A stretch of 20,000 nt of DNA from NCBI GenBank assembly GCA_010093815.1, contig ML996572.1. One strand, 5' to 3'. Each line of letters starts with the position of its first letter. Positions within the stretch are counted from its first letter, which is position 1. Positions 1 to 18,282 of this stretch are shown piece after piece. Position numbers and translations under genes: made by a program. The notes beneath the pieces were generated by a model that had not been told where the DNA came from, ran no database searches, and was given only the letters and a program-made list of their open reading frames with translations. This DNA is from Pseudovirgaria hyperparasitica. Its lineage: Eukaryota.

Positions 1-1574
1 CAATATCCTAGGCCAAAAGGGCTTTCATACGATTGAGCCAGCAGTGGTCAAGGCAGTGTTGGGGACGCAATTCGAAGATTTTGGGCTGGGAAGTGCGAGG
101 TGTGGGAGCTTTAAGGGGCTGTTGGGCGATGGAATCGTAAGTGTCTCTTTCTGCTAAGTCAACCGTACATCACTGTTGCATGGCAGCTCGTTTTCCCTCG
201 TGAGTCAGTGAAGAAGAGTAACCCGATTTAGAGCTTGCGATGTTAGGCTTAAATTTTTGTCTACCTTCTACAGCATCCGGACGGCATACCTTGTTCCTTT
301 TTGTACACTCGCGTTCCGATTCTTCTGTCACATGGTCGTCACCATTATCTGAATCTAACAAGCACTAGTTCTCCTCCGACGGCAAACAATGGCAACATTC
401 CCGTGCCCTCCTCCGCCCTCAATTCGCCCGTGCTCAAGTCGCCGACCTCGATCTTGAGGAGAAACACTTGCAACATCTCCTCCGTGCCATCCCGATAGAG
501 TCCACAGGATGGACCAACGCAATTGACATCGCTCCGCTCTTCTTCCGCCTCACCCTAGACTCCGCAAGCGAATTTCTCTTTGGCGAATCCACAGACTCGC
601 AACTCGCCGCCCTACCCTCCTACCCACGGCCCAAAACTGCCGCCCTCGCCGAGTCCGACTTCGCTTCCGCCTTTGACGAGGCCCAGCGCCTCCTCACCCT
701 CAGCTCCTACGCCGGTGACCTATACTGGCTCCTCCAAGGCCCCGCATTCCGCAAGGCATGTGCGCAATGCCACACCTTCATCGACCACTACGTGCACAAA
801 GCACTCACCGAAACACCTCCCGATGCCCCAGAACAGCAGCGTCCAGACGAGCGTTACATTTTCCTCCGCGCACTCGTACGCGATACGCGCGACCCGCTCG
901 AGCTACGGCACCAGCTGCTCTCCATCCTACTCGCCGGCCGCGACACCACGGGTGGGCTGCTATCATGGGTCTTCTACCTGCTAGTGCAGCACCCGGATGT
1001 GTTCCAGAAGCTGCGCGCAGAGGTCCTTGCACACTTCGGCACGTACGCCGCGCCGCGCAATATCACGTTCGCCGGCTTGAAGGGGTGCGGGTATCTGCAA
1101 CATGTGCTAGCTGAGACGCTCCGTCTGCACCCCTCAGTGCCGATGAATGGGCGTCGCTGTCTGCGCAGCACTACGATCCCGACGGGTGGGGGCCCGGATG
1201 GGAATGCGCCAGTGTATGTGCGTGAGGGTCAGGAGATTATTTATACGGTGTATGCGATGCATCGGCGAGTGGATCTGTGGGGTGCTGATGCGAATGAGTT
1301 CAGACCAGAACGCTGGGAGGGTCGGAAGAGTGGGTGGGAATACTTGCCGTTTAACGGTGGGCCGCGGATCTGTCTCGGTCAGCAGTTTGCACTGACGGAG
1401 GCAGGGTTTGTGGTTGTGAGGCTGCTACAGAGGTTCGAAGGATTGGAAGGTGTGGGTGTGCCGAAGGCCGGAGAGAGAGTGAAGCATGCGGTTACCTTGA
1501 CGAGTAGGCCAGGCGAGGATGTGACAGTACGATTTAAGGTCTCCAGTGAAAAGGAACGGGACCATGATGAATGA
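1..1574 (+). CDS. Cytochrome P450, CYP52 clan (alkane/fatty-acid hydroxylase-like); 5'-partial; exons <1-136 and 369-1574, intron 137-368
   Basis: Frame from nt 2 reads NILGQKGFHTIEPAVVKAVLGTQFEDFGLG..LLGDGI, then a GTAAGT donor (137). CTAAC branch (355-359) and TAG acceptor (366-368) join it to FSSDGKQWQHSRALLRPQF, in frame with ORF 468-1574. Motifs: I-helix AGRDTT, K-helix ETLR, PERW, heme FNGGPRICLG. Confidence 0.93.
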
Positions 1575-1878
1575 GTCCACAATATGAAGGATTTAGCATC
1601 ATGATAAGAGAGCAATGTGATCTTGAGATATCACCTAGCAATTGGATATAAGATTCCAGGCTATAATATGGACGTAACGCCCCGTGTATCCGTACTGTCA
1701 TGTGCATGAACTTAAACAAAACCAGCGCTAACATGGCCCAACTCCAACAGTTTATGAATATGAACCACGAGACTCCTCTGAACCAATGCCAACAAGGACT
1801 GTATCACAAAAGTGCATTTGATACCGGACACAAAAACGCCTCCGCCATGCTGGGTATATTCGACAGGGCCGATGCCGC

Positions 1879-4327
1879 CTATTTTCCTGCGTGAAAAGCA
1901 AACTTTGAGAGATCGAACGAGACTCCGGTAGACTTGCCGGTCAAATCTTCGTCTGGCTCAGACTCGCCGCCACTGTCAGGCACAAGCATGTCCTCGCTCC
2001 CCTTGAGGTTTTGTTTGCGGCCCACAGAGGTTGATACTTCGATGGACACAGGAGGAGATGGTGAGCGTAAACCATCACTTCCTGGGACAACAATGGTGTT
2101 CCCAGTCTCTTTCCATTCGGCATCGGAGATATCTGGATAGTCATCAATAGTTTCGGATGTAGCGCCCGGTAGTGTGTCAGATACAGAGGCTACATCTCCA
2201 GTCTTTAACGATGGCTCAGGCTGGCTCGAAAAGATCGGGGGTAAGGGTATCGGACGAGATGTGGAACGTTTGGATTTAACAGGGGCTGAATATGTTCGAG
2301 CAAATCTCCTCTCGGTCGCGTTCTTTACCATTTTCCTACTCAAAGTGGGCGAGTCAATGTCCCTTGCTGACTGAAGCGCAAACCTTGAGTGAAGATCTCC
2401 GAGGTTTTTGCGTATGGAGTCGTCGAACACTGAGGGTTCATACAGGTCGTCGGTCGGTGAACTTCCAACAGATGTAGCAGGTGTCAGACAGCCTGTACTA
2501 ATCTGCGACTCGACGGTCATATTTGTCATTGCAGTCATCTGAGATGTATCGCCGTCGAGACTGTCTCTTTGCGACAGCGCAGGAGTGGTAGGAACATCCG
2601 CTAGTACAGACATCTTCTTTCTAGGCTTCACAAAGTCATGTTCAAGGTCGGGAAGCTCAGCCATGGCATCTTCAACCGAGTCATCAGAGAACAGATTGAA
2701 GTCGAAGGATTTATTTTTCCCCTCACCGCTCACTGCACGCGTTGGCTTGCGTGTAGCAGTAAGGGTGGGTCCAAAGAAGTGGCTTTTTTCATCAGCGTCT
2801 TCAAGTGTGGGTTGCTCATTGGCTCTGCTGACAACAGGTCCGACACATAATCTTGGCCTTTTGGGTGCGTGGCGCCCTGCATTCATTGTGGTATCGGATG
2901 CTGACCTACGCGGGGCTGATGCGTTGCGAAGAGCAGGTCGGCGTGGCTGCATGGCCTGGGCAAGGCTCATCTGCGACGCAGCGTTAGCTGTGAAAGGTCC
3001 TGGGTTGTCTTCGAGCAGCCGCTGTTGACTAGGGTTTGGTCGGAAGACATTTGGATCCAGTTCAGCCAAGGGGACCCGCTTCTTGAAGAACTGATCGATA
3101 GGCTTCCCTTTCTTTGGATCATCATTCTCGGATGAATTCTCGCTGCCAGTCGTTGAGTTGAGTCTCTTCTTGATAGAGGCGACAAGACGTTCACCGGATT
3201 GCGAAGCTTTGGTCTTCTCCGGAACTATCATTGTCAGCTTGGTGTGGGGATTCAGTCTGCCCTGGGCGATCCCTCGTGCTGTCTTTGGTTCCAAGGAGGC
3301 CCCTATGTAGGGCATATCGCCAGCTTGTAGATTGTCCGGCAGCGGCGTCAAATGTACGAGTTCTTGAGCATCTGGGCAGTACACCCACTGGTACAAGAAA
3401 GTTCTCTCAGCTTGTTCGAATGAAGTCTCGTATCCGGCCGGAAACTTGATCTTACCATCGAACCTGGCGGCGGAAACTAGACGCTCAATCGTTTTATACT
3501 TCCGCACATGCCTGTATGCCGTCTTAAGGCCCATGCTGGCAGGGTTTTTCAGGTAATCACAGCCACTCAGAATAGCCATACGTCTGAACTCTGCATCAGA
3601 CCATCCAACAAGACTGACTTCTCGACAGGCGGTGAAGTCTTGTCTCCTGACCATGATACATTCTCCGTAAGCGTCCAGCTTGGTGAGAAGTGTCTTGGCA
3701 CCAAAAACTAGGAGATCGGAATCCTCAGAAAGAATTGCCTGGATAATACCCTTCTGCTCGAGGTATACCATCTGAGCGTCGGCCTCGTATGGAGCAACAA
3801 CATATTGCACATTTGCACGCTTCAATTCCTCGATAAAACAAAGTGCCACCTCGGGAGTAATATCGACAGCTTTCGCAAGCTCCTGGTGAGCTAATGATGA
3901 TTTACCCGCTTTGAGAAGATCTGTACCGATTCTTCTAGCTTCTGCCCTTGCGCTTGCTCGATCTTTCTCGGTCTCCGCTTTGCTCGGTAAATAGTCGCCG
4001 TCGAACACTAGATAGGGCGTAATGCCAAAGTGTATGAGCATGTGTACCCTCTTCATACAGAACTCGATGTGCCTAGTGCACGTTAGCGCACACTCAGTAG
4101 CAGATACAGATCTTGCGTACTGCATAGTGAATTGGCCGAGAGCAAGCTTGACGCCGCAGGTATGAGCCCCACGATGAAGCCATCCGTACGCGTCAATGCC
4201 AACAACATGGCCAGCAAACTTCCTTATGTGGCATGGTTTCTGGATTGACTTGAGCAGAGGGAGCAAGCCTGCCAGTTCTTAGCTGAAATCTAGACATGCA
4301 AATCCTACACGAACCGGTAATCCCCAT
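1879..4327 (-). CDS. EXO1: Exonuclease 1 (XPG/Rad2 family 5'-3' exonuclease), ~784 aa; exons 4327-4315, 4268-4121, 4072-1879
   Basis: Spliced N-terminus MGITGLLPLLKSIQKPCHIRKFAGHVVGIDAYGWLHRGA; XPG motifs LVFDG, VAPYEADAQM, SEDSDLLVFG, ILSGCDYL; long low-complexity C-terminal tail. Introns 4269-4314 (GTTCGT..CAG) and 4073-4120 (GTACGC..GCTAAC..TAG). Confidence 0.95.
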
Positions 4328-4455
4328 GTTTATGCCTCGCGGAAGCCTCGAATGTGATGACGGGAGGGGCCGCAATTCAAGACGACATGGCGAAAAGGAA
4401 CCAACAAATTCGAATAAAGTATCGAGCAGAAAAACAAGTCGTTAGTCCCGTAAAC

Positions 4456-4592
4456 TCGCGTACGAGCGTGCAGTTGCGTATCGAGAGAACTCGAGCTCCG
4501 TCGGGGCAGTTGGATGCGGTGAGGCGAACGCGCCGGGATGGGAAGAACACCCAAAGGACGCGACGTGCTACGCCGTAAAAGGTATGTCGCGT
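4456..4592. promoter_or_regulatory. Cluster of four MCB-like ACGCG cores upstream of EXO1
   Basis: TCGCGT 4456-4461, ACGCGC 4528-4533, ACGCGA 4558-4563 and TCGCGT 4587-4592, ~130-265 bp upstream of the EXO1 ATG. MCB/MBF control of DNA replication/repair genes is established in ascomycete yeasts; function here is inferred. Confidence 0.55.
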
Positions 4593-4899
4593 GTATAAGG
4601 AGCAGCTGAGCAACCTACAAAACTATCTCCTCGATACTCTATAAGAAAATGTAGCAGCAGGTCTGACTAACAACCTAATTTGCTGAGAATTAGATATCTT
4701 AGCACAACCGAAGACTTCAAGTACATCCGATAGATCAACCCTGAGTAGACTGCGCACTGCTTGAACCGCGATGTCTCAGGTGGCTGTTCCTTAAGCGGGA
4801 GACCGGCGCTAACGGCGTGTTATCGATAAGCATTTTGTGTAGGTCTTGCCCAACTCCATCTGATTTTATTTTGACGTAGAACTACGACAGCAGAATACG

Positions 4900-5486
4900 A
4901 TGCCGACCAAAACCTTCACCAAAGTGCAAAAGCACATTGCCAAGAAGAAGGGGAAGAACGCAGCTCTCCATGAGCATAGCCGGGACTCGCACAGACTGCA
5001 AAGAGCGGCGATGCGGGATGACAAAGTTCAGAGAATCACGTCTGCGAGAGCGAAGCAGAATCAGCCTTTATGTGAGCAAGGACAGCCTGAATTCTTAACA
5101 CTAAGCTGATGATGTCCCAAGTGCAGAGAATCGCCTGGTTTCATGGCATCGCGACCGAACGTGATCCACCATTGGACATATCCACAATCCAAGGCCTAAT
5201 ACGAGAATGCATACATCGCGACGACGAGGAGCTAGGAAAGTTGAAGTCTGAACGTAGAGCAGGACGTCCACCAAGTACGCGTGAGGTTATGCTAAAGCAG
5301 AGGGTGGACGAAGAGACGAAAGAGCATAAGTCAGGTTTCTATCTGCCAGATCTAGAGGACGAGAAGAACATCGATGCGCTCAAGGAGTGGAATGGCGACT
5401 ATGTGGCATTGAATACCGTAAATTTCGTGAGGATTTCTGATGATGGAACGAAACACCAATCGAAGTTTCCCCCGAGGCAGAAATAG
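4900..5486 (+). CDS. TMA16: Translation machinery-associated protein 16 (pre-60S factor), ~178 aa; exons 4900-5071 and 5122-5486
   Basis: Basic N-terminus MPTKTFTKVQKHIAKKKG..LHEHSRDSHRLQRA..RDDK and C-terminal RRAGRPPSTRE..GFYLPDL..LKEWNG match my recollection of the Tma16 family. Intron 5072-5121 (GTGAGC..CTGAT..AAG) joins the two ORF-track fragments in frame. Confidence 0.85.
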
Positions 5487-6380
5487 CCAATGAAGCACAT
5501 GAAAAAATAGAAAGTTGTGGTGTGTATGTGGATTGTGATACCCCAGGCAGCGAGATGCAGTTACGTGTGGGTCAGATATTCACATGGGCGGAGATGATGT
5601 AGATGCAGACCTTTGCCGTACACTGCATCGCCAAGAAGCTCTATAGCTGCACCAGGCCACTGGCTTGCCAAGGTCGACGGGAACCCGGCAGAAGTGGTGA
5701 TAAAGAAGTAGAAGGGGGATACCTTTGATACGCACATACTGGTATTTATGTCATTCTGCTGTGGCTTCTGCTCCCAAATTTGAATATCCTGCAAGTTCCC
5801 GCGCCCGGCAAGTCGTCAAATCGAACATGCGCTGAAACTTCGCTTCATTGAAGCTGAGCCTCAATCCAATGACTCTATTGGCTCAAGCGGATTTTACCAG
5901 CTTGACCGAGCATCGCACTCCGTCTCTCTTGACCTAGTCGAAGTTGACAATTTGATGCGCCTCGTAAACTTTGGTACACCATGACAAAGAGATGGTGCTG
6001 GGTGACTATCGACGGTCGGGCTTATGTTGCGATTGGAGAAAGCATCAACTTGAACATCTGGCATTCACACTAGTATTAGCTTAGATGTCATCGAAGGGCC
6101 TTCCTTGTCCACATCTTACGCTGAATGTACCAGGCGTAAATAAGCTTTTGATGTAAACAATGCCCCCGAGATGTTACTATGTAACAAGGGGTTTCCCTCG
6201 ATGCCGAACTCGATATGATGTAATGGATTCACATCAGGCTATGGCTTATCAAAGATCGATGAGCCAGATTGTAGGATAGCTTGAGCTAGCCACTTTGCGG
6301 TCTGCCCACATGATGCCGGCAGCATAGCAGGTTCAGACGTTGGCGACTTAGGGTCATTCGTTGTTGACAATTTTCATACC

Positions 6381-6480
6381 AGCAATTGCATGATGACTGT
6401 CTCTTAACGAGGATTTTTGGCGCCCGATAATTCGAGACAGTGCAGAAATGAGGACGTGTATACGGAATCCTGACGTTGTT
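6381..6480 (+). ncRNA. Weak candidate box C/D snoRNA
   Basis: Box C ATGATGA 6390-6396, C'-like ATGAGGA 6448-6454, box D CTGA 6470-6473, G-U-rich terminal stem AGCAAT/GTTGTT. No rRNA/snRNA target recognised. Confidence 0.2.
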
Positions 6481-6670
6481 GAGCTCGCCGGTAGCTTCCA
6501 TCAGATGCGGAGATGCAGGGCGCAGTAGGCTTATACGTTCCTAGGGCAGACATACCACTAAGCGATCAATGTGCGACGTAGATCAAATCATTACCGGCTT
6601 TAATGGATTTGTTCGCCAATACGGATGGATAGAGAGTAGGCGATAGACGTCATCTGTTTCACATCCTTAT

Positions 6671-7470
6671 TCAACCGAATTGTGAGCAAGCCGCGTCATG
6701 ATGCCTCTTGCATTCTAACCTGCAAACTCTTTCCCCACATTTCAAACATCGTATACGGCCCCAGTAGCCACACATTACACAGAAACGTCTGATCGGTGGC
6801 CCATGTGCTGAAGGCGGCGCAACACGGGCTGCGTTATATGATAAAGGTGGTGCGGAGATTAGAGCCTCAAGCTCTTCGGGCGTGGGTGCAGGCGGTACGG
6901 TAGACTCGAGCAATGGATACTTTAGCAATGGATCTGGTGACTCTTTTGATATGCCAGTCATTGGCGCGGGTGTTTGATTTTGGGAGGCAGTCGCTGGTGT
7001 ACGTGGAGCTGTAGAGACGCGTCTAGAGCCGTCTAGAGCCCTTGCTACAGCCTTAGAAGGATTGCTGCGTATTTCAGCCTCTTCATCAGCGAGATAGTTG
7101 TCGAATCGTTTGCCAGATTGCAATATTCGGCGCACGTTTGCAGTATTTCCGCCTTTGAATGCTATTTGGGGAATTAGTGAATGTGGCGCATACATCCCGT
7201 TGTCTCTGACATACCGCCCTCTTTCTTCTTAGAAGGTATGTTGACCTCTTTGGTGCTTGTATCGCTGTCCAGTAGGTTCAATCGCTTGGTCAGACGCATC
7301 TGCACTGCTGCTGCGGTGGCTTCACTGCTGTCCCGGCCAGCTGCGACTCGACGCCTCTTGCCGGCAGGATTAATGGCGACTTTGGACGGATCGAAGCCTG
7401 TATCTACGATATAGGCCCAGCCCGGACCAGGAGCTGAGCCAGTGTTCGGAAGCACTTCGATACGAGGCAT
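6671..7470 (-). CDS. VPS71: HIT-type zinc finger protein, SWR1 complex subunit Vps71/Swc6 (ZNHIT1-like), ~248 aa; exons 7470-7215 and 7161-6671
   Basis: MPRIEVLP..PGWAYIVDTG start, NVRRILQSGKRFDNYLADEE block, C-terminal RRFCVMCGYWGRIRCLKCGERVCRLECKRHH zf-HIT. Intron 7162-7214 (GTATGT..CTAAT..TAG) joins ORFs 7174-7533 and 6671-7195 in frame. Confidence 0.82.
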
Positions 7471-8753
7471 TGTTAGTCGTAGTAGAAAGCATGGTAAGTG
7501 AAGATTGAGGTCTGGAACATGGTGGTCGAACACTCCATATCATATCCATTAGATAATACGGAGCTTTGATGTTACCGGGATACCTCACGTCCCCTCGGTC
7601 ATTACCTACTACAAAACTATCACCCAATGATCGACCGCTATCTGTGTACATGGAGTAGAAGGTGAACCATTGAATACAGCTCCTCACATACGGTTCCCGT
7701 CAATGGCTGTGATATAGTACCCAATGGAGCATACCTGGAACCTAAAGCAGATAAGAACCCTACCGACTACCGGGCCGCTGTCAACGTGAATTCGATCGAG
7801 CCAGAGGAAAGCGCGATTGGCATCCTTACACAGAGCGACACGCCAATATGAGTTTTGCAACGGTCAAATGTTGGCGTAAAGTTTCGTCGCAAAGGTTTCC
7901 TGCCAAGAAGAGTTTGAGTGGGTGGTACAGCATAAGGCATAGTAGTTGTATTGTTGATGCAATGGCCTGCATGATGAAGATCTAGTCTCTGTCCAAGGGA
8001 TGAGAAATGCGACGCGACAATCTAAATGCAGTAAATGGTATAACGTACGATTACAGCATATGTATGTCGAGCCTCGTTTCATTCTCTCTAGGGGTCCGGC
8101 AGAGGAAGTCTTACATATTATGATCACCACGGTAGTCGACACCAAGAATGGGTACCATATCTGTACTTTGACCGCACTTGGTGGTGAGGATTCTCTCAGG
8201 CGCACTTGAAATTGGTGCTTTGTTCGATATGACCAAGGTCAGCCGAAGGGGGATAAACGGCAGGTATTGCTATAGTTTGAAGGCAGCCGTGTGTGATGAA
8301 CTGCTGCTGGAATACCAGACCAAATTTGAGGGAGGGAAACAAAGAGGGTTTCCAAGGTATGGCGGGTAGGGTTCTTTCAAGTCCTTCACATCATTCTTGT
8401 CGTGTGTTGCTTTTCGAGAACTACAAGCGTAACAATTACGCCTTTCCGCAATACTGTTCGATTATTCGTTGTCATTGGTCAATATTCTATTGAGATTCTT
8501 GTTAGGAAGAGATTAAATCCTAGTAGTAGGTTCATAAAGGTAGTGAAGTTCTGCAAGAATTCAAGTCCACCAATGCGGCCGTCTTCTTACGATGTTTCGC
8601 ATTTCTGCTTCTACTACACGATAAGTTTTTACTCTGAAAGCATCGAGGCCTAGTCGATGATGGTCAGTACGTTCAAAAGATCAAAGATATTCATGTCAGG
8701 GCAAGAGGAGGAGGAGCAAAAGGGCAATATCTCGAAATGGCCGCTCGAAATCC

Positions 8754-8884
8754 AAAACAAAAGCTCATGCCCGGGATCGAACCGCAGATCATGCGCCTCT
8801 GCGCCCCTGCAGATACTTAGCTCCTTCATCTGGTGCTTTTCTTCAGTGGTGGGTCATGTCGTTAACCAACTAGACTAATTCTCC
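8754..8884 (-). ncRNA. tRNA-like RNA polymerase III unit (non-canonical ncRNA or tRNA pseudogene with ~50-nt insert)
   Basis: Minus strand: A box/D-arm TAGTCTAGTTGGTTAACGAC (A box 8877-8866), B box GGTTCGATCC (8783-8774), terminator TTTTGTTTT (8762-8754), upstream TTTATAA (8925-8919). Acceptor, anticodon and T stems do not pair properly. Confidence 0.6.
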
Positions 8885-9157
8885 CACTGGGGACTGGAAT
8901 CTTGGAAGGATGATTCAATTATAAATGGGTGGTTGGATATCGAACTCTTCACTTTATTGTTTGCCAAGCACTAGGGCTCGCCCGGTAGCCCGCAAGGCCC
9001 GCCGAGGTTCCATCGCGGTCTACACCTGACTCTCGTCTGTTTGCTTCCCAGTTCTAACTGGCGAGCGATCTAGTTCTCCGTTTCGTTGCATCACAGTGTT
9101 TGTCTTTCGTCTCGTGCCCAATACAATTGCTCTCCGCATAACGAAATTTCATGTACA

Positions 9158-9996
9158 ATGGCGCCTCGAAAGGAACCGAAAGAGCCAAGAGAGAACGCCG
9201 CTGACATGATTCTCACGTACCTCCGCAAGCAGAAGTACACTCACCTCACACCAATTCATGCCTTTACTGACACTCTACCTCACTTCGCAGTCGTCCCTAC
9301 TCTGCAACCGATATCTCCGCCAATTTACACAATAAGGTGACTAAAGCTGCGACTGCAAAGCTTCTGAAAGACCTACACGAGCGCAAGGAGATCGAAGGTC
9401 GCGCCGCCGGCAAGCAGATTGTGTACCACTCAGTCCAGGTTAGCTGCAACATCATTTTAGCATATCACGGCACGTAGCCATCATTCGTTTGCGTTCGCCT
9501 TCATCCCAGGAACGGGTTTTTACTGACACGCAGCTCTGTATTTACCGGGCTCTTCGCGAAAGCCGACCATTTCTCTGCTAACAACCACTAGTCCGCAGAC
9601 GACGGTGCTTCACCAGAGGATCTTGCGGCCATTGATGCCCAGATCAACACCTACCGTTTCCAAACATCAGATCTGCAAGCCTCCATCAAAGTCCTGAAAG
9701 GCAGACTCTACACACTATCATCGACGATGTCCACCGTGGACCTCGTAGCGACCATGGCGAGTCTTGACGCCGAGAGAGCTGAGATATTGGCGCGACTTAG
9801 CCCGCTTCGTGCTGGGAGTGTTAAGCCAGTTGACACAGCGGAGATGAAGCATGTAGATGCTGAGTTGAACAAGTGGACCGGCATTGAGGTGAGACGACGA
9901 AAGATTGAGGCCGAAATGTGGGCGCTAATGAGAGATCTGTTGCCGGAGGGTACGGATCATGCAGAGCTGAGAGAGAAGCTGGGGCTGGACGAGTGA
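9158..9996 (+). CDS. HOP2: Homologous-pairing protein Hop2 (TBPIP/Meu13), ~209 aa; exons 9158-9234, 9291-9438, 9592-9996
   Basis: Spliced winged-helix ILTYLRKQNRPYSATDISANLHNKVTKAATAKLLKDLHERKEIEGRAAGKQIVYH, then coiled coil and C-terminal RRRKIEAEMW..LREKLGLDE. Introns 9235-9290 (GTACAC..CTGAC..CAG) and 9439-9591 (GTTAGC..GCTAAC..TAG). Confidence 0.9.
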
Positions 9997-10167
9997 GGAC
10001 ACTGTCTGGACATGTCTCTATCCTTCTAACTTTGACTCATGTTGCTACGGAGATCTATTCTGGGTGAACAGGTCAGAGTGTAAGTATTTTAGATCTGTGT
10101 GAGTAATGGTATCCATGGTCATCACAAAGAGCTTCGGATGAAAGCACATCCCTAAGCTAGTGTCTCA

Positions 10168-11768
10168 TCAAGTTGTAAATCGGAAGGAAGGATGATCATC
10201 ACCAAGATTATCGACATCGTCTCCCTCCAGCCGCCAATCCCTCTCACCCCTATCTCTTTTTTTGTTCTCTCTTCTGACGCCAAAGAACAGTATGGTGCAA
10301 GAAGCGCCGCATACCCACAGAAGCCCAAGAGAAACACCATAGCCCGTCGGATACCGAGGTCTCTCACTGTCCAGAAAAATATTCGACGCGACAATTCCTC
10401 CCATATTGCCAAAGCCAACTGTCATGGCAGCACTCACGCTCCTCTTGTAGTGACCAGCCATTGAATTCTGCACCCATGTCAAGACAACTGAATGTGTGAT
10501 TGAGTTTCCGGGTACGATGAGGAAGAGGGCGAAATACTTGACGCCCTTGGAAAGACCATGCTGGTTGAGTAGTACGATGTAACCGACAGACGCAACCAAC
10601 AGACCAAGAATGCAAAATGAATAGCGATGTCTCAAACGATCGGTTGCCAATGCATTTACCAGGGCGACACAAGTCGCGACGATTAATACTGGAATAGTGC
10701 GTACTTGCGCCGCTTCAGCGGTGTACCCTAGCTCGCGAATAATCGTAGGCATGAAGAAGCTTGCGGAGTAACCTGTGTTAACGACACCAAAGTACATCGG
10801 TACAGCAATGTAGATTTTCCAATCCCGGAAGATACGTTTCAGAGCGGGCTTGTCAAGCCTATTCATGGCTGCCTCACCCACGTCAGCATGCAAGCGTGCA
10901 GCCAACATCGCCCTTTCGGGCTCCGAGAGGAACTTCGCTGTCTCTGGCCAGTCGACAACCCAGAACTTGGCCACCAGACCGATCGCAACGGTCGCGAGAC
11001 CCTCAATGATAAAGATCCAGCGCCATCCACGGTACCCGCCAACTCCATCCATGTGCGCCAACGCGTATGCCAGGAGCCCGCTAAATGCGCCTGCGAGAAG
11101 GCTTGCGCTGAAGAAAAGCGTTAATCGCCACTGGAGCTCGAAACGCTTGTAATACATGCTAATCAGGTAAATGCAACCAGGAAACAAGCCCGCTTCGAAA
11201 AAGCCGATGAGCACACGCATGGCAACAAGACCTTCGACGGACTTGATAAGGCCCTGACCAACTGTTGCGATGCCCCAGAGGACCATGATCAAGCTCAGCC
11301 AGGTGGATGGCGCAACTTTTTTGAGGATCATGTTACTGGGGATTTCGAAGAGAATGTATGGGATCTGGAGGCGTCAGTGGCGAAATAGTGTAGAATGTGA
11401 TATCACAAACAAAGAACACGAAGAGAGCAATGTTGAAATCATTCCCAACCATATTCAAGTCCTCGGTCATGCCCTGGATCCGCGCATTCCCTTCGAATGT
11501 CAGCTGACCTCAACAAAGATCTCTGAGAGCGATTCCGCATTTTGACAGTTCTATCGATTGGCCACATACCTATGTTCGACCGATCTAAGAACGCCATCAA
11601 GAATAGGACGAAAAGGGGTGGTAGTATATTCAGATCGCATTTCCGGAGCAGCTTTTTCTCCTGTATAGCGTCAATGCTGACGTTCAGCTCTACCGCATGC
11701 TCTTCATCTTTGACCCCCTCCACATGCGTGTTGAGCTGCGCAGAGTCGGTCTTCTCTCCGAAAAGCAT
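10168..11768 (-). CDS. MFS transporter, anion:cation symporter (Dal5/Tna1 allantoate-nicotinate permease) family, ~491 aa; exons 11768-11570, 11490-11411, 11364-10168
   Basis: Signature KLLRKCDLNILPPLFVLFLMAFLDRSNIGNARIQG, FEIPSN, EAGLFPG, GWRWIFIIEG, LGDDHPSFRFT; ~12 hydrophobic segments. Introns 11491-11569 (GTATGT..CTGAC..AAG) and 11365-11410 (GTTTGT..CTGAC..CAG). Substrate cannot be assigned. Confidence 0.9.
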
Positions 11769-12827
11769 TGTACCGGATCTGTTATTCACTTGAGCCCCTT
11801 CTCGAATGTCTATCGTCGTGATGGAGTCACGAGCGAAAGTAATGGTGAATGAAGCAAGAGAGAACTCGAGAAGTAGAAGAAGAATATTTAATTAGGCACA
11901 GTGCCAAATACAGCATTGACCGACGACGGACCGTCAAGGTCAAACAGACACGTCAGGTCAAGCACATACGGGTGCAAAAGGTAAAGCGCATTTCACTCTC
12001 CTTGCGCGGTGTCTATCATTCTCTCAACTTGGCATAGTGGGAGACCTCGCCTCGCAAACATCTCGGAGACGCCGGCAGCTAGAGTACAGGTCTATCTTGC
12101 GATTAATTCAATCATCCGAAGTGCCGTTTGGTTGCAGCATTGGTATACAAGGATACCCCGGATTCCCACAGCGAGTTACGACCTGCGACAGAAAAACGCC
12201 GGACGGACCTGCGATAGAGAGGGCATACGTTGCTTTTGAGTACTGTGATAATAAGCGACCAATAAGTGGTAGATTGATAAGGGTACGCACGGGTTTATCA
12301 TAGCTGCTATGTTGTACGCGATGTTCGTTGTATTACAGGGGGCTTTCTATTCTGCATCGGCGGAGATAGAATAAATCCAGCGGCTTCCCTTTTCGGTAGA
12401 GTGCGAGTGCCTTTGAATAAGATGTTGGGAACTGAAAAAAGCCCAACTAATTAATCATTTCTGCCCGAAAGTATCATCCATTTTGTTTTCCGAAAATTCA
12501 TCTTTTGCCTCCCAAACTTACCTCCGTTGAAAAAGATGGGCACCCTATTCGATAGATACGACGCATCTCATTGGCAACCGCACGTAAGCTTGCTTCCTTG
12601 TTTATGCAAGTAAACCAAATAATTATTCTCGTAAACACTGTCACATTCATGGTGAATGCAGTAACACGCGTATGAAACTCCGCTCGGCATCAAGAAATTG
12701 AACATGTCAGGTCAGCCATTTAATTCAAGAGCGCACGTACAAACCCAAACGGTTCGATTGGATCCCATCGTATTGTCTCACTCCAAACTCTTTGGCCAAG
12801 ATCGATACCCCGATGCTGTGACGATGA

Positions 12828-14048
12828 TCATTTCCACGTCAGTTTCCAGGTGTCTTCTCCCCTTCGGAAAGGGATGACTTCAATATCACCAGTAGCGTTC
12901 TTCAGCACATCAGGGACCTTTGCGCCTTTCCTCTCTAGTTGAATTTTGCGGCCATGGGCATGCTCTGGCAGCTTATAGAACTTTCTACCGCGATTGCTCA
13001 AGAAGTCTTCAAGCGACGCCGCTGTTACCTCTCTTGAGATCCATCCCTTGGCTACGGCCTCTTCGATGGCTCCAATCACAAGCTGCGTGGCACAGCTCTG
13101 GGTAAAGCATCCCGCTGCGGCCTTCTTGACACCTGTTTTGGCTGTCACTGGATGTGGCGCCGAGTCGCTTCCTATATACTATTTTCAGAATTGCGTGTGT
13201 GTGTACAGACTGTACTTACCAAAGAAGAATTTCCCGTTTCCTCCTTCTACTGCAGCGCGAACGAGAGCCACGCGATCCTCCATAGTCTTGGCCACAGGCT
13301 TACAGAAGTTGAAAGCATCACCGCAGACATCGTCAACACATATCCATAGATGGTGAGCTGTGATAGTCGCTGCAACACTCGGTCCGCATTTTAGAACAGC
13401 GTCCAGAGCATCGCGCGTCGTACAATGCTCTAGAACTATCCGAAGCTTCGGGAAAGCATTGTGAATCTTGTGAAGCGTTGGAAGGAATAACTTCTCTGCA
13501 TTGAGAACTGACACAGCGCTCTCACCTGCCTTTTCGCTGGCGATAAAGTTTCCAGAAGGTGTGCTTGGTGCTTCGCCATGCAGGTTCAGGACCATGTCGT
13601 TCCTCTGCATAGCTTCGAAGATTGGGAAAAAGCTCTCATAGTCTACGACTCCTGACTGAGAATTCGTCGTCACTCCAGCTGGATAGACTTTCACACCGGT
13701 AATACCTGCACTAGCGGCGTCATCGATGATCTCCGGGGTGAGGGATTCGGTCATGTACAGAGTCATGAGAAATTTGACGTCTGGTGCTAATGGCTGGATT
13801 CGGGCAAGATACGATTTTGCGGCTTCTACAGTAGTGACAGGCGGGATGAGGTTAGGCTACTGAGCATCAGCTTGTTATCACCACTACAGCCAAGCGAAGC
13901 TGAATGGGAAGATCTGAAATACCATCACATACACGGTATCGACCCCGCCTAATCTGATCGTGGGAACCACCATTCTCATCATCTCGCCATCTCGCAGGTG
14001 CACATGAAAGTCTGCTGTAGGAGCCAGCTCAATCTTTTCGAAATCCAT
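12828..14048 (-). CDS. URA4: Dihydroorotase (monofunctional, PyrC/Ura4 type), ~368 aa; exons 14048-13923, 13856-13220, 13171-12828
   Basis: ADFHVHLRDG metal motif, VMPNL, GVKVYPAGVTTNS, LNLHGE, IVLEHCTT, ATITAHHL, FCKPVAK, FFFGSDSAPHP. Introns 13857-13922 (GTATTT..TAG) and 13172-13219 (GTAAGT..TAG). Confidence 0.95.
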
Positions 14049-14664
14049 TTTGAGCCTTTTACCTCAGGGAGTGCAGAATATCATACTTCACCTGGTTCTA
14101 CGATATCAAAAATATGAGGTGGTGCAGCGCCCTTGAAAAGTAACTACTTTTTCAAGGCTAGCGTAAATGGCGCTGCGCCCTAACCCACCTGGGCAGGACC
14201 ACGCTGGAATAGCGCCGTTCCTGGTGATGAAACTACGAAACAGTGTGATGACGATGAATCTTGATATAATGAGCTCTTGGAGTATTAGGTAGATGCGCCG
14301 AATTCAGTTGTAAGCTTTCCCCCAGCCTAGCCTTACTAGAAGCTGGAGTAAGGCTGTCAAAGCACTGTCAGGATCATAAACCTAACATATCGTTGTACAG
14401 ATACTGAGAATCAGAAACTTGTGTAACGTGGGTAGAGCCATACGATCATCGATCGCGGACCTTATTATCCTCTTACGTGTTTTTTGACTATTACCACCAT
14501 GCCTCAACATCGCCTATGATTGAATACTAGTTATAAAGGGCAGGCTTATCACCATGAGGCTAGTACTTATGGTCGTAAGTCGTGACTATCTAATTAATTA
14601 ACGTTTTTGAGCTTTACTTTCGTGATGCTGCCTGCGGGCGGATACATATCGGCAATCTAACCCC

Positions 14665-14905
14665 TGTTGTGTATGTTATGGAAGAAACCGTTGATTGGAG
14701 ATGATATACGGAGCATTATTGGGCTTTTGTTTGTGTAGATAAGTGTATTATAAGTAGAAAGTAGACGTGATTGAGGTCATTAAATGTATTCTATAAGTGT
14801 GTAAAGAACTAAGTTCTAGGAGATAGAGTCGAAGCTATTTAACCGTTTAGACACTAGTCCTATTTAGGAAATAGTATCCCTTACTTAAAGTGCCTTCTAA
14901 TAATA
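14665..14905 (-). repeat. Putative 3' LTR of the copia element (~241 bp)
   Basis: Begins TGTTG (14665) and ends TAATA (14901-14905, RIP form of CAACA); abuts the polypurine tract. The second LTR is not in the window. Confidence 0.65.
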
Positions 14906-14912
14906 CTCCCCT
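14906..14912 (-). other. Polypurine tract of the copia element
   Basis: CTCCCCT on + = AGGGGAG on -, immediately before the LTR and downstream of the pol end. Confidence 0.65.
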
Positions 14913-15062
14913 ATACTAAGTATATATATATATATACTTAGTAATATTAGAATAAAGAAAAGCTTAAAGTAAGTAATAGTAAGAGATAGTACTAAAAGAA
15001 TAAAGGAAAGAGGGGTATAAGAGAAATAACTAAGAGAGAAATAACTATAAGTAAGATAACTC

Positions 15063-18000
15063 TACTATAAACTAATTACTATCTTTATTTAATTTAGTAG
15101 TAGTAAGGGTAGTCCTTTTATTCCTATATTAGTAATATTATTATAACTTATAATATACTATATAGATATAACTCTATTAGTAAATAATTCTTAAACTATA
15201 TAATAGTATATTATAATATATTTAGACTATACTATAATTTACTAGTTTTAGATAAGGGCTATAGTAGCTTAATTATCTATAAGAAGATAGGGAACTAGAA
15301 TATTATAACTTATAAAGATCTCTTTTATATCTAGTAGAGTCTACTATAAGTAACTTATAGCCTTTAAGTAGGCTATATATTCTACTTTATAGGTCGACTT
15401 AGTAATATATAATTATCTTTTACTATTCTAGGCTACTAAGCTTCTATTTAATTAAAGTATATATATAGAGATAGACTTTATAGTATTAGGGTCTAAACCC
15501 TAGAAAGTATCCGAGAATATATTAATTTCTATAGTATCTTTTAACTTCTTTAGTATAAGGTATTAATTAATAGTATACTTAAGATAGTATAATATACTAA
15601 AAGTAATCTATATATATTATACCGACGGATTTATATTAAATATAGTATATATATCTACTATAAAAGTAAGATCTAGACGCGTACTAGTAATAAGGTAATT
15701 AAGTAACCTAATTAATTATATATATATAAGCTACTATTCTTAATTAATAATTTCTTCTAAATATATTAGAAAGGTATTTATATCTACTAGAGTCTTTCTA
15801 CTATTATAGTCTATTATACTAAACCTCTTTAGAATATATTAAGAGTAAGCCTTCTATAAGAGCTTAATTTCGCCTTCTTATAATTAATTAATCTTAATAT
15901 CTAGAATTAGGCGGGCTTCTCTAAGGTCTTTATATTTTATATAATTTATAATCTTATATTTAAATTATTATATATACGAGCTCTCCTCTATAAGTAGAAG
16001 GTTATTAATATATATAGTAATAATAATATATCTAATAAAGATATATAGATTAAACTATAACTATTAGAATTTAAGAGACTAGAGAAGGTTATATAAGGTG
16101 TGAAACTATTTCTAACTAGACTATTTTAACCTATAAATTACCTTCTATAGCTTAAGAATCTTACCTAGCTTTTTAAATCCTAGCGGGTGCCTTATATAGA
16201 TATTTTTAGATAGACTACTATTTAGATAGGTAGTATTAAAATCGATCTAGTAAATATACTTACTATATTATATAGCCTATTAGAGTATAATATAAAGAGA
16301 ATTATACTTAATAATAGGTATAAAAGTTTTATTATAGTTAAGACTATATTTCTATATAAAGCCCTATATAATAAGATATATCTTATAAACTTTAGTATTA
16401 TCTATAGTAGTCTTAATATTAAATATCTATCTAGAACTAACTATTATAGGGATATTTATAGTAAGCGGAGCTTCCTACTATAATATAATGAATTACTAGC
16501 TAGAGCCATAGAAGAATACGTAGACTCTAGTACGAGTAGCGTAAGGGATAGTATAACACGTAGAAGAGGGGCCTATAATACGATAGGTAGCCTTAGATAA
16601 TAATCTAAGGCTAAGGTAGACATCTATAAAGAGAGCTAATCATAGGTACTTAGAATAGGTATTCTAAGTAGTCCACTAGATAATTAGGAATAGAATATTA
16701 GTATTCTAAGTAATATACTAAATACTTAGAATAAGCATTCTAATTAGAGGACCTTAGTAGAACTATATAGACCCTTTAGACCCGACCTCTAGAAGATAGT
16801 TCTATAGTAATTAATTTAAACTTATACTAATATAATTACTACTTTACTCGCCTACTAGCTAGTTACTATTTATACCCTATTAATACTTACTATAAATCTA
16901 CTTACGCCTTTCGGAGCCTTCTAAGTACCTTTACCTTTAGGAAAGCCGGGATACTCTATAGAACGGACTACTTTAGGGATAAGCTATACCCTTATCGAGG
17001 AAGGTTTATTATATATAATTAATTAATCTTATAACTTCTTAGCTCCTTTTTAATAGCTATTTACTACTAATACTAATTAGAAGAATTTCTAGTCTCTTTT
17101 AGATTTATAGGAACGTTTATATTTAAGGTAGTATTAACTAATAGAGTATAGATTATTTCCTTCTCTTCTATATCTACTAAATTTATAGAGTTATTAAAAT
17201 AAATTATATACTTATATTTTCTTCTAAAATAAGATATATTAGAAGGTAATCTTAATAGATATAGATTTTTATATAGTAGGTTATAGCTAGAGGAAGATTT
17301 AAATTTTAGTTAATTTACCCTAGGTATAGTAGAAGGCGTCCTACTATAAGAAAGGGTAGATAATCTTTATTAGAGTATCTTAGTAAGACTTATTATATCT
17401 TCTATATAGGGCTAGAGGTCCTATATATTTTAGACTATAACTAGTATATTACGAGATACTTCTCTATTATCCGACTCTTCTTTAGAGCTATCTCTTTCTA
17501 TAATAATTAAGGAAAGAGATTACTATAGAAGTGGTCTTAGACTAAAGAATACGAAAGTAATATCTTATAACTTAATAATAACCTTATAGTTAGGAATATA
17601 GTACTTATAGATTTTATCTAATTTACTATAACTAACTAGAATACCTTTCTCTAATCTATAGAGGAGCTTACTATCTAGCTTTTATACTTCTTTTAGAATA
17701 TATATATAGTAGATAACTCTAAATAGATATAAGTTTTAGATAGAAGGCTTCTTACTAAAGAGAGTATAATATAGTATATCAACTATTAGGAGAGAGGTAT
17801 ATAGTATAATATTCTTAATAAACGTTATTATATAAATTACTTTAGCCTAGAATTTTAACTTAGTATTAGAAGAGAGAATAGATCTTACTAATATTTAAAC
17901 TATATAGTTAAACCTTTTAGCTATTCTATTTAACTTATAAGAGTAGATATAAGAGGTAATATATATAGTACCCGTCTTATAAAAGAAGTCTTAAAGACTT

Positions 18001-18105
18001 TTAGTAATATATTTACCACCTTAGTTAGATATAAATTCTTTAATATCTATATTAAACTACTTCTTAATATATATAAAGAACTATATAATAATATTAGAAG
18101 CTTTT
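15063..18105 (-). pseudogene. RIP-inactivated copia pol (integrase core, SH3-like domain, RT, RNase H)
   Basis: Literal translations (de-RIPed in brackets): SN*GGKY (SDQGGEY) ~18009-18029; NRIAKRFNYI (NG.AERFNRT); F*AKV (FWAEA); YKIYLII*GFI*KYSLNYNKTFIP ([24 protein letters not shown]); IYRLK*SS*K* (IYGLKQSGREW) ~16106-16138; YINN (YVDD) 16001-16012; RNase H FSDT, *NSKR*..KSTYKVEY, DN*ATIAL, SKYI, NITNIGIKGL. Confidence 0.9.
16457..17013 (+). mobile_element. ~557-bp insertion in the copia pol, probably a solo LTR of another family
   Basis: Separates the copia pre-RT motif VPINLKETRNSSN*Y***IAIKKEL (~17110-17020) from its normally adjacent IVSSR*IF (~16450-16420). More GC-rich than its flanks; ends TATAGTAA..TTATTATA are compatible with RIPed TGTAGTGA..TCACTACA; TATAAA at 16625. 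No clear TSD; strand tentative. Confidence 0.6.
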
Positions 18106-18282
18106 TATTAGGACTTAGCCTTAGATAGAACCCGATCTATATGTACCTTAGCTAATAGGGTTAGAAGGTAACGTAAAGGGCGGTAAATAGTCACGTACTA
18201 GATAGATTAGCGTCCCTTTATATATATACTCTCGGATTCCTACTAAAAGGGTTCGGTAGTAATTCGTTCTATAATAGAATAT
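18106..18282 (+). repeat. Truncated, more heavily RIPed gypsy LTR (copy A)
   Basis: 177-bp ungapped direct repeat of 18283-18459; about 21 differences by hand count, all transitions. Confidence 0.9.

Follow-up and report, generated by a model that had tools for sequence, protein, structure and literature searches.

Rodent BC1 RNA is a Pol III RNA that is derived from tRNA-Ala and refolded to a non-cloverleaf form; it is made from one gene, contains an A-rich region and seeds the ID SINEs. The family reported here is likewise tRNA-derived and (in its predicted fold) non-cloverleaf, but it comprises nine genes, has no A-rich part and has no detected progeny. RUF70 of Yarrowia lipolytica, with 13 copies, was found by northern and argued to be functional from compensatory changes (PMC2566860), and we count it as a precedent for a selected multicopy RNA family; it is ~70 nt long, has no internal promoter and lies behind an intact tRNA-Trp, whereas the present family has A and B boxes of its own inside a refolded tRNA-derived body. 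RUF6 of Plasmodium falciparum is alike in consisting of 15 dispersed structured-RNA genes with internal A and B boxes, a conserved lower stem and a variable head, but it is tied to var clusters and regulates var in trans (PMC5175341), whereas the neighbours of the present family are unrelated; Rfam scans of the window and of other copy loci gave no relation to RUF6 by sequence. Fungal tRNA SINEs (AfuSINE2, MgSINE and Foxy) share a tRNA-type promoter, dispersal and, at times, low copy number with the present family (AfuSINE2 is 140–493 bp long and low in copy). According to PMC5063351, from which these likenesses also come, the Pol III transcript is the template for new SINE copies, which show target-site duplications and a tRNA-unrelated region; the present family, in contrast, has no target-site duplication, no tRNA-unrelated tail, a conserved upstream TATA and a structure that appears to be under selection. 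Finally, milR-1 to -4 of Neurospora are, as here, non-tRNA Pol III units that have T-runs and TATA-like elements and belong to a filamentous ascomycete, but milR-1 is without A and B boxes (both from PMC3547838) and conservation in the present family lies at a junction rather than in a hairpin arm.

The element that we analysed lies in a window (that is, the whole 20,000-nt stretch under study, 1213550-1233549 of contig ML996572.1) of the genome of Pseudovirgaria hyperparasitica, a Dothideomycete described as a mycoparasite of rust sori (PMC3317363). We conclude that the family to which it belongs is real and undescribed: its nine members are Pol III-type genes of tRNA origin, the evidence that their RNA structure has been under selection is good, and the family has no particular link with HOP2, the gene adjacent here. 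The family is undescribed in open-access full text, and the repeat or non-coding RNA tables of the genome paper could bear on its novelty. A 23-letter core pattern had 0 matches in metagenome collections, which hold few fungal genomes; looser patterns had 46 metagenome and 5 viral matches, which we read as chance (best score 15.7 bits with model R1, versus 56–168 for members), and Rfam on 20 of the 46 metagenome matches gave nothing useful. The absence of a homolog outside the genome is a weak one, given the few fungal genomes in the collections; EXO1 of the window matches a protein labelled Pseudovirgaria hyperparasitica at 100% identity, and the nearest relative after it is 66% identical.

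Promoter, tRNA ancestry and the HOP2 neighbourhood

The element is on the minus strand, flanked by HOP2 and by a zf-HIT gene (VPS71 in a first-pass annotation made from the sequence alone), and the motifs listed for it in that annotation were all found in place. Its transcription signals are as follows.

8925-8919, minus strand: TTTATAA, as read in the letters
8918..8925, minus strand: upstream TATA element; TATAAT from 8923, 31 nt 5' of the conserved CCCC; reads TATAAA on the plus strand at 8920-8925
8877-8866, minus strand: A-box-like TAGTCTAGTTGG; strict pattern in 7 of 9 copies (all but L004 and L069)
8783-8773, minus strand: B box; GTTCRANNC in 9 of 9 copies
8762-8754, minus strand: Pol III-type terminator TTTTGTTTT; T-run of at least 4 here in 9 of 9 copies, with more runs downstream
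8759..8895, minus strand: predicted Pol III transcript of ~135 nt; start placed at a purine 1–3 nt 5' of CCCC and end in the first T4, on the basis of alignments

This is the layout of a type 2 Pol III gene, with B box, T-run and TATA in all nine copies and a strict A box in seven. The combination of A box, B box and T4 occurs once in the window and on average 0.01 times in 100 Markov resamples (14.5 kb each, built from window positions 1-14500). TATWA stands 31 or 32 nt 5' of CCCC (-31/-32) in every copy, against a background of 0.00085 per position (~0.002 per copy); among the 40 resident tRNA genes of our comparison set, 19 have a TATA-like word at -55 to -30. Conservation sets in abruptly at CCCC (8892), 15 nt 5' of the A box, and stops at the T-run, and from this onset and the fixed TATA offset we infer a Pol III start just 5' of CCCC and an RNA of ~135 nt. 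The ~120-nt tRNA-derived non-coding RNA proposed previously holds as a tRNA-derived Pol III-type unit and needs amending in length, as the conserved part starts at 8892. Since this unit begins 5' of the tRNA-like part, the acceptor-stem failure noted previously is, under our structure model, a matter of the wrong frame: the 5' leader belongs to the predicted fold.

The view that the element is not a foldable tRNA is borne out by ARAGORN, which made 0 tRNA calls in the window and at eight of eight copy loci (all but L069), intron-containing canonical tRNAs included; neither with nor without an intron does the element give a cloverleaf with a 7-bp acceptor stem and an anticodon loop. Rfam at E<=5 placed no family at the element in the window, and RF00005 had no match at the element in the window, L003, L005, L008 or L069. 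Descent from a tRNA gene is nevertheless visible in the D-arm-like and T-arm-like contexts of the A and B boxes and in likeness to resident tRNA genes. In a comparison with 40 of the 49 tRNA matches of the genome, a Val(AAC) gene ranked first for four of six copies tested and second for the other two (~2–2.5 sd); the two Val(AAC) genes fit the 5' part best, through the old anticodon arm, and the T arm also fits. Because the 3' end is matched by Gln genes too, sequence likeness suggests Val(AAC) as the source isotype and does not settle it. In the simplest history, a tRNA gene would have gained ~50 nt at the variable loop and its anticodon-arm strand would have re-paired with its own leader.

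Two other accounts of its origin or processing were rejected: a 5S rRNA chimera (hand-picked likeness p 0.008–0.09, which disappears without the shared word, p 0.15–0.61) and a tRNA minihelix serving as an RNase P/Z signal, which can be drawn in subfamily A (L001–L004) and is lost in L006 and L069. Separately, three resident tRNA genes (L034, L048 and L046) are apparently mis-assigned by ARAGORN through intron placement, L034 resembling the Arg(ACG) gene L035 and L048 having an unusual long intron; 5S genes are dispersed in the genome (20 matches), and L057:1501-1620 is a divergent 5S rRNA type in which both strands of one helix are changed relative to L058/L059.

On the HOP2 side of the element lie the following.

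9158..9996, plus strand: HOP2; exons 9158-9234, 9291-9438 and 9592-9996; Pfam TBPIP; joints in RNA runs X3 and X4; context, outside the family
8920..9010, minus strand: upstream flank shared with L004, which is the HOP2 proximal promoter region; 75% over 52 nt, E 1.5e-5; local alignment to ~-118

The identity of HOP2 is confirmed (TBPIP, E 2.9e-11, with agreeing spliced RNA contigs), as is the plus-strand TATAAA upstream of its ATG at 9158. The suggestion drawn from this geometry, that the element modulates the HOP2 promoter, finds no specific support. The TATA is explained by the Pol III unit, since it keeps the same offset in all nine copies; HOP2 adjacency is one of nine copy neighbourhoods, and the Pfam-named neighbours of the other copies (IPP transferase, DUF7907, GNAT, cofilin-like, ZIP transporter and capsule-synthesis-like; 6 of 34 frames matched) are unrelated, the neighbouring genes being tandem, convergent or divergent and 0.2 to >1 kb away. 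A local effect of the element on HOP2 is possible. More generally, the copies might act as DNA-level landing pads for TFIIIC and TFIIIB (that is, insulators or promoter modulators, here on HOP2), their RNA being incidental. Retention of the B box in nine of nine copies, even through deletions, accords with this, as do the start of the 5'-most HOP2 RNA contig at 9002, 77 nt from TATAAA, and the presence of 8920-9010 in the flank of another copy; the best-conserved part of the element, however, lies outside both boxes and has paired changes that matter only in RNA, and other copies adjoin unrelated genes, and we consider landing pads very unlikely. A TFIIIC-bound insulator, as once put forward for this locus, leaves the paired stem changes unexplained, though TFIIIC probably binds the element as a side effect. 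The ~75% likeness of 8920-9010 to the L004 flank suggests that part of the HOP2 promoter travelled with the RNA gene.

Several observations concern the surroundings alone. An out-of-frame ATG 7 nt 5' of the HOP2 ATG (window 9151-9160) starts a short, overlapping reading frame. X3/X4 RNA contigs cover 7623-8477, a stretch between the element and the zf-HIT gene with no Pfam-named gene and only a 72-aa open reading frame listed. An AT-rich block at 14750-18250 (GC 0.22–0.27) is probably a RIP-mutated repeat and is adjoined by an amidohydrolase (dihydroorotase-like) gene at 13185-13766. Elsewhere, a tRNA isopentenyltransferase (IPPT) gene (L003:2462-3181) ~0.8 kb downstream of L003 is probably a coincidence.

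Nine dispersed copies

The unit is present in nine dispersed copies in the 35.4-Mb genome; the further copies for which the first-pass annotation had allowed thus exist, eight of them beyond that in the window. Searching the genome at the DNA level gave 8 loci (81–100% identical, across six contigs), the same 8 being recovered with the most distant copy as query, and an 18-letter core pattern matched 8 times (control 0). A second pattern matched 10 times; one of the two new matches, L069, scores 56.4 bits (E 4e-13) under a model built from the first eight copies only, and the other is without a score. All nine exact matches to a 15-letter linker pattern are family members, and one-mismatch matches number 14, versus 21 in the control, with none above 8.6 bits. 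Nine is a lower bound, as copies were found by core similarity and core-diverged members would escape.

Subfamily A and subfamily B (L005–L008) differ unevenly along their length. The core (alignment columns 45–104, 60 nt) is invariant at 49 of 60 positions in eight copies and 93% identical between subfamilies; corresponding values are 92% for the leader, 71% for the A-box arm and 59% for the 3' hairpin, and the TATA-to-start spacer, at 0.29–0.58, is mostly near random (unrelated flank 0.41–0.56). Changes within the family show no C-to-T excess, and a 12-mer found upstream in subfamily B is about as frequent as the background would give (9 vs 8). Homology between pairs of copies extends into the flanks, ending 35–175 nt upstream and 8–150 nt downstream at places that differ by pair (for example, ~118 nt upstream for L001/L004 and ~175 nt for L005/L006; ~95–130 nt downstream for L001/L003 and L006/L008), and four 5S genes of the same genome have no comparable shared flank. 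An LTR or MITE-type element was rejected, the copies being without fixed common ends.

The family could alternatively be a low-copy, tRNA-derived SINE-like mobile element whose conserved structure serves copying by a LINE reverse transcriptase. Tests of this reading have largely failed it, and we regard it as unlikely. The tRNA-type A and B boxes, the dispersal and a copy number as low as that of AfuSINE2 would suit such an element, and at three or more of the other copies long RNA contigs run from the flank into the element, so that flanks could travel in read-through RNA. Against this, the TATA 31–32 nt upstream, which a Pol III transcript cannot carry, is kept in nine of nine copies; shared flanks stop at different places for each pair, without fixed ends; and there are no target-site duplications, the longest direct repeats equalling those of mismatched loci (4.89 vs 4.79; 5.67 vs 6.06). 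Nor is there a body or tail past the B-box hairpin: DNA searches gave family members only and no LINE end, with the proviso that a RIP-decayed end could be missed. A RIP-tolerant pattern (all C-to-T and G-to-A changes, plus 2 mismatches) likewise returned the same 8 copies and no decayed ones, copies lacking the P3 arm (defined below) being invisible to it. Two routes of spread, duplication of DNA pieces and copying of read-through RNA with selection for intact promoters, are both compatible with these data.

Long RNA contigs join flank and element at L002:1651-1900, L006:150-1500 (upstream) and L008:1-1500 (downstream; all coordinates approximate), suggesting Pol II transcripts that overlap these copies. 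Among the pieces listed, the RNA contigs over the element in runs X3 and X4 derive from the flanks of L002, L006 and L008, and the letters private to the window copy are without depth; as such contigs cannot reveal a short RNA, we treat this result as neutral.

Predicted fold and paired changes

Covariation supports a predicted fold that consists of a three-way junction followed by a 3' hairpin, with the following parts in the window copy.

8889..8892, minus strand: 5' strand of P1, CCCC; pairs with GGGG 8804-8807; invariant in 9 of 9 copies; pair probability 0.58–0.99
8845..8888, minus strand: P2 arm; leader AGUGG (8884-8888) pairs with CCACU (8845-8849); top is a D-arm-like hairpin with the A box
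8812..8844, minus strand: P3 arm; lower stem GAAG/UAUC, which is weak; upper stem-loop at 8819-8837, in which AGC-A-CC / GG-A-GCU closes a loop of 7 nt
8798..8811, minus strand: junction UG(C/U)N, P1 3' strand GGGG and linker GCAGA; invariant or wobble-keeping in 9 of 9 copies
8762..8797, minus strand: P5 3' hairpin; invariant G.A mismatch in the base stem; T-arm-like top loop with the B box; probability 0.94–1.00 in 9 of 9 copies

Across 38 pairs and nine copies, 94.5% of cells are paired and 8 of the 38 pairs are changed on both sides, in an alignment (A5) that was fitted to the structure model and in which three of these eight lie in poorly aligned helices. Among the 25 well-aligned pairs, 5 change on both sides. 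A tree-based neutral simulation with the same 20 changes gave a mean of 0.41 double changes, with 0 of 5000 runs reaching 5, and confining it to the 13 variable columns raised the mean to 0.80, again with 0 of 5000 reaching 5; the simulation ignores gene conversion, which could likewise homogenise the core, and the sample is small, at nine related sequences. Eight copies had served to fix the structure before L069 was found, and L069 then added two double changes at predicted pairs. By arm, P2 has two pairs altered on both sides (L008 and L069), and P3, which is mostly without a tRNA counterpart, has C-G to G-C in L003/L004 and C-G to U-A in L069.

Other observations count against the fold. 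P1 never varies and is therefore without covariation; the lower P3 stem has a probability of only 0.00–0.52, with one pair broken in 3 of 9 copies; P2 is absent from the predicted ensemble of L008 (0.00), which prefers another pairing; and folding energy is unremarkable (z +0.08 to -2.75 across 8 copies, -1.21 for the window copy). All nine copies could also accommodate an alternative hairpin, UCUGC/GCAGA, at a probability of 0.00–0.30. The two 6-bp hairpins described previously can both be drawn, and neither is the conserved fold: 8798-8803/8783-8788 relies on base 8785, which is private to the window copy, and 8827-8832/8810-8815 has a pair probability of 0.17 in the window copy and is impossible in L069, where its 5' strand is missing. 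A pseudoknot between the P3 loop and UAUCUG was also rejected, as L069 keeps UAUCUG though the loop is absent.

L069 (L069:1470-1583) is a natural deletion variant of ~105 nt, in which the upper stem-loop of P3 and the greater part of the T-arm are missing, and lies between a ZIP transporter and a cofilin-like gene. Judged from its sequence, the upper P3 arm would be dispensable in at least one copy, or L069 differs in role. P5 is shortened in both L006 and L069, which lie on separate tree branches (modest support), and both retain a closed stem and the B box. The window copy has four private changes; as two of them break pairs (8851 and 8785), it may be weakened relative to the family, and it keeps the whole core (156.7 bits under the family model, versus a range of 136.8–167.7 for full-length copies).

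These patterns bear on two further readings. The copies could be recently duplicated, functionless tRNA pseudogenes homogenised by gene conversion, a process that can keep a core alike; the D and T arms are indeed tRNA-like, and the highest scores for the 5' part belong to Val(AAC) genes. We give this very little weight, given that the best-conserved part is the ~50 nt without a tRNA counterpart, that double changes are far above neutral expectation and that promoter geometry is intact in nine of nine copies although the spacer drifted. The copies could also yield precursors of Argonaute-loaded small RNAs (milRNAs), like the Pol III-made milR-1 to -4: in PMC3547838 the main Neurospora milRNAs are made by Pol III from units with T-runs and TATA-like elements, one of them from a tRNA-containing precursor, and P2 and P5 are hairpins of 15–20 pairs with bulges. 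Such a family should conserve a 20–25-nt arm, whereas here the hairpin arms vary and the junction is invariant, which makes this origin improbable in our view.

A probable selected RNA gene family and its possible role

We therefore favour, with a probability of about 0.68, a lineage-specific family of Pol III RNA genes that goes back to a tRNA gene and has been maintained by selection acting on its RNA. The earlier idea of a tRNA-derived Pol III RNA is strengthened by the nine copies, the fixed promoter geometry and the paired changes in stems outside the promoter boxes. In the mechanism that we envision, which for its first steps follows type 2 promoter biology, TFIIIC on the internal A and B boxes would place TFIIIB on the TATA, and Pol III would make ~135 nt and stop in the T-run. 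The 5' leader would then pair with the old anticodon-arm strand (P2) and with GGGG (P1), closing the three-way junction, with the new arm P3 in the former place of the variable loop and the 3' hairpin followed by a U tail. The A-box and B-box arms would tolerate change while promoter and stem survive, whereas change would not be tolerated in the junction, in the GCAGA linker or at the base of the hairpin, and copies may have spread with variable flank (including the promoter) and then been pruned to functional ones.

As to what the RNA does, decoding, rRNA guiding, a Y RNA and known ribozymes all failed as options, and what is invariant is a junction, not an extended single strand; from this we weakly infer a protein-binding role. 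We put it at slightly under even odds that the invariant surface is a putative protein-binding site and that the RNA works in trans, either as the scaffold of a small ribonucleoprotein or as a decoy. An rRNA guide snoRNA was rejected on a longest complement of 8–10 nt in four copies tested versus a null mean of 9.1 (the rDNA stretch holds 1000 N), and complementarity to rRNA, 5S, HOP2 or VPS71 RNA is at chance level. The Y RNA partner Ro60 (TROVE, PF05731) has no match in the genome, in which an incomplete assembly or introns can hide one. In comparison with vault RNA, whose two ends pair with one another, the 5' end of the present RNA is predicted to pair with the middle rather than the 3' end, and Rfam gave no vault match. 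Known self-cleaving ribozymes and riboswitches were set aside, with Rfam giving only IsrM over L069 at 24 bits (cut-off 376) and a match in a flank, both read as chance. A more far-reaching proposal, which we advance tentatively and think rather doubtful, is that of a new fungal small RNA class born from a tRNA gene, in which ~50 nt acquired at the variable loop, together with a co-opted 5' leader, would have turned the cloverleaf into a three-way junction with an invariant surface; the product would be an abundant ribonucleoprotein or catalytic RNA, kept by the mycoparasite at tRNA-like gene dosage, with a modular P3 that one paralog has shed.

In our reading, the Pol III transcriptome of filamentous ascomycetes past tRNA, 5S, U6 and SRP RNA and the Neurospora milRNAs is little described, and the nine paralogs provide a model of the structure, a naturally occurring deletion variant and well-defined targets for mutation. 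If our main reading is true, a tRNA gene was converted to a new folded RNA within a single fungal lineage, and low-copy 'SINE-like' calls in fungi may conceal selected RNA genes.
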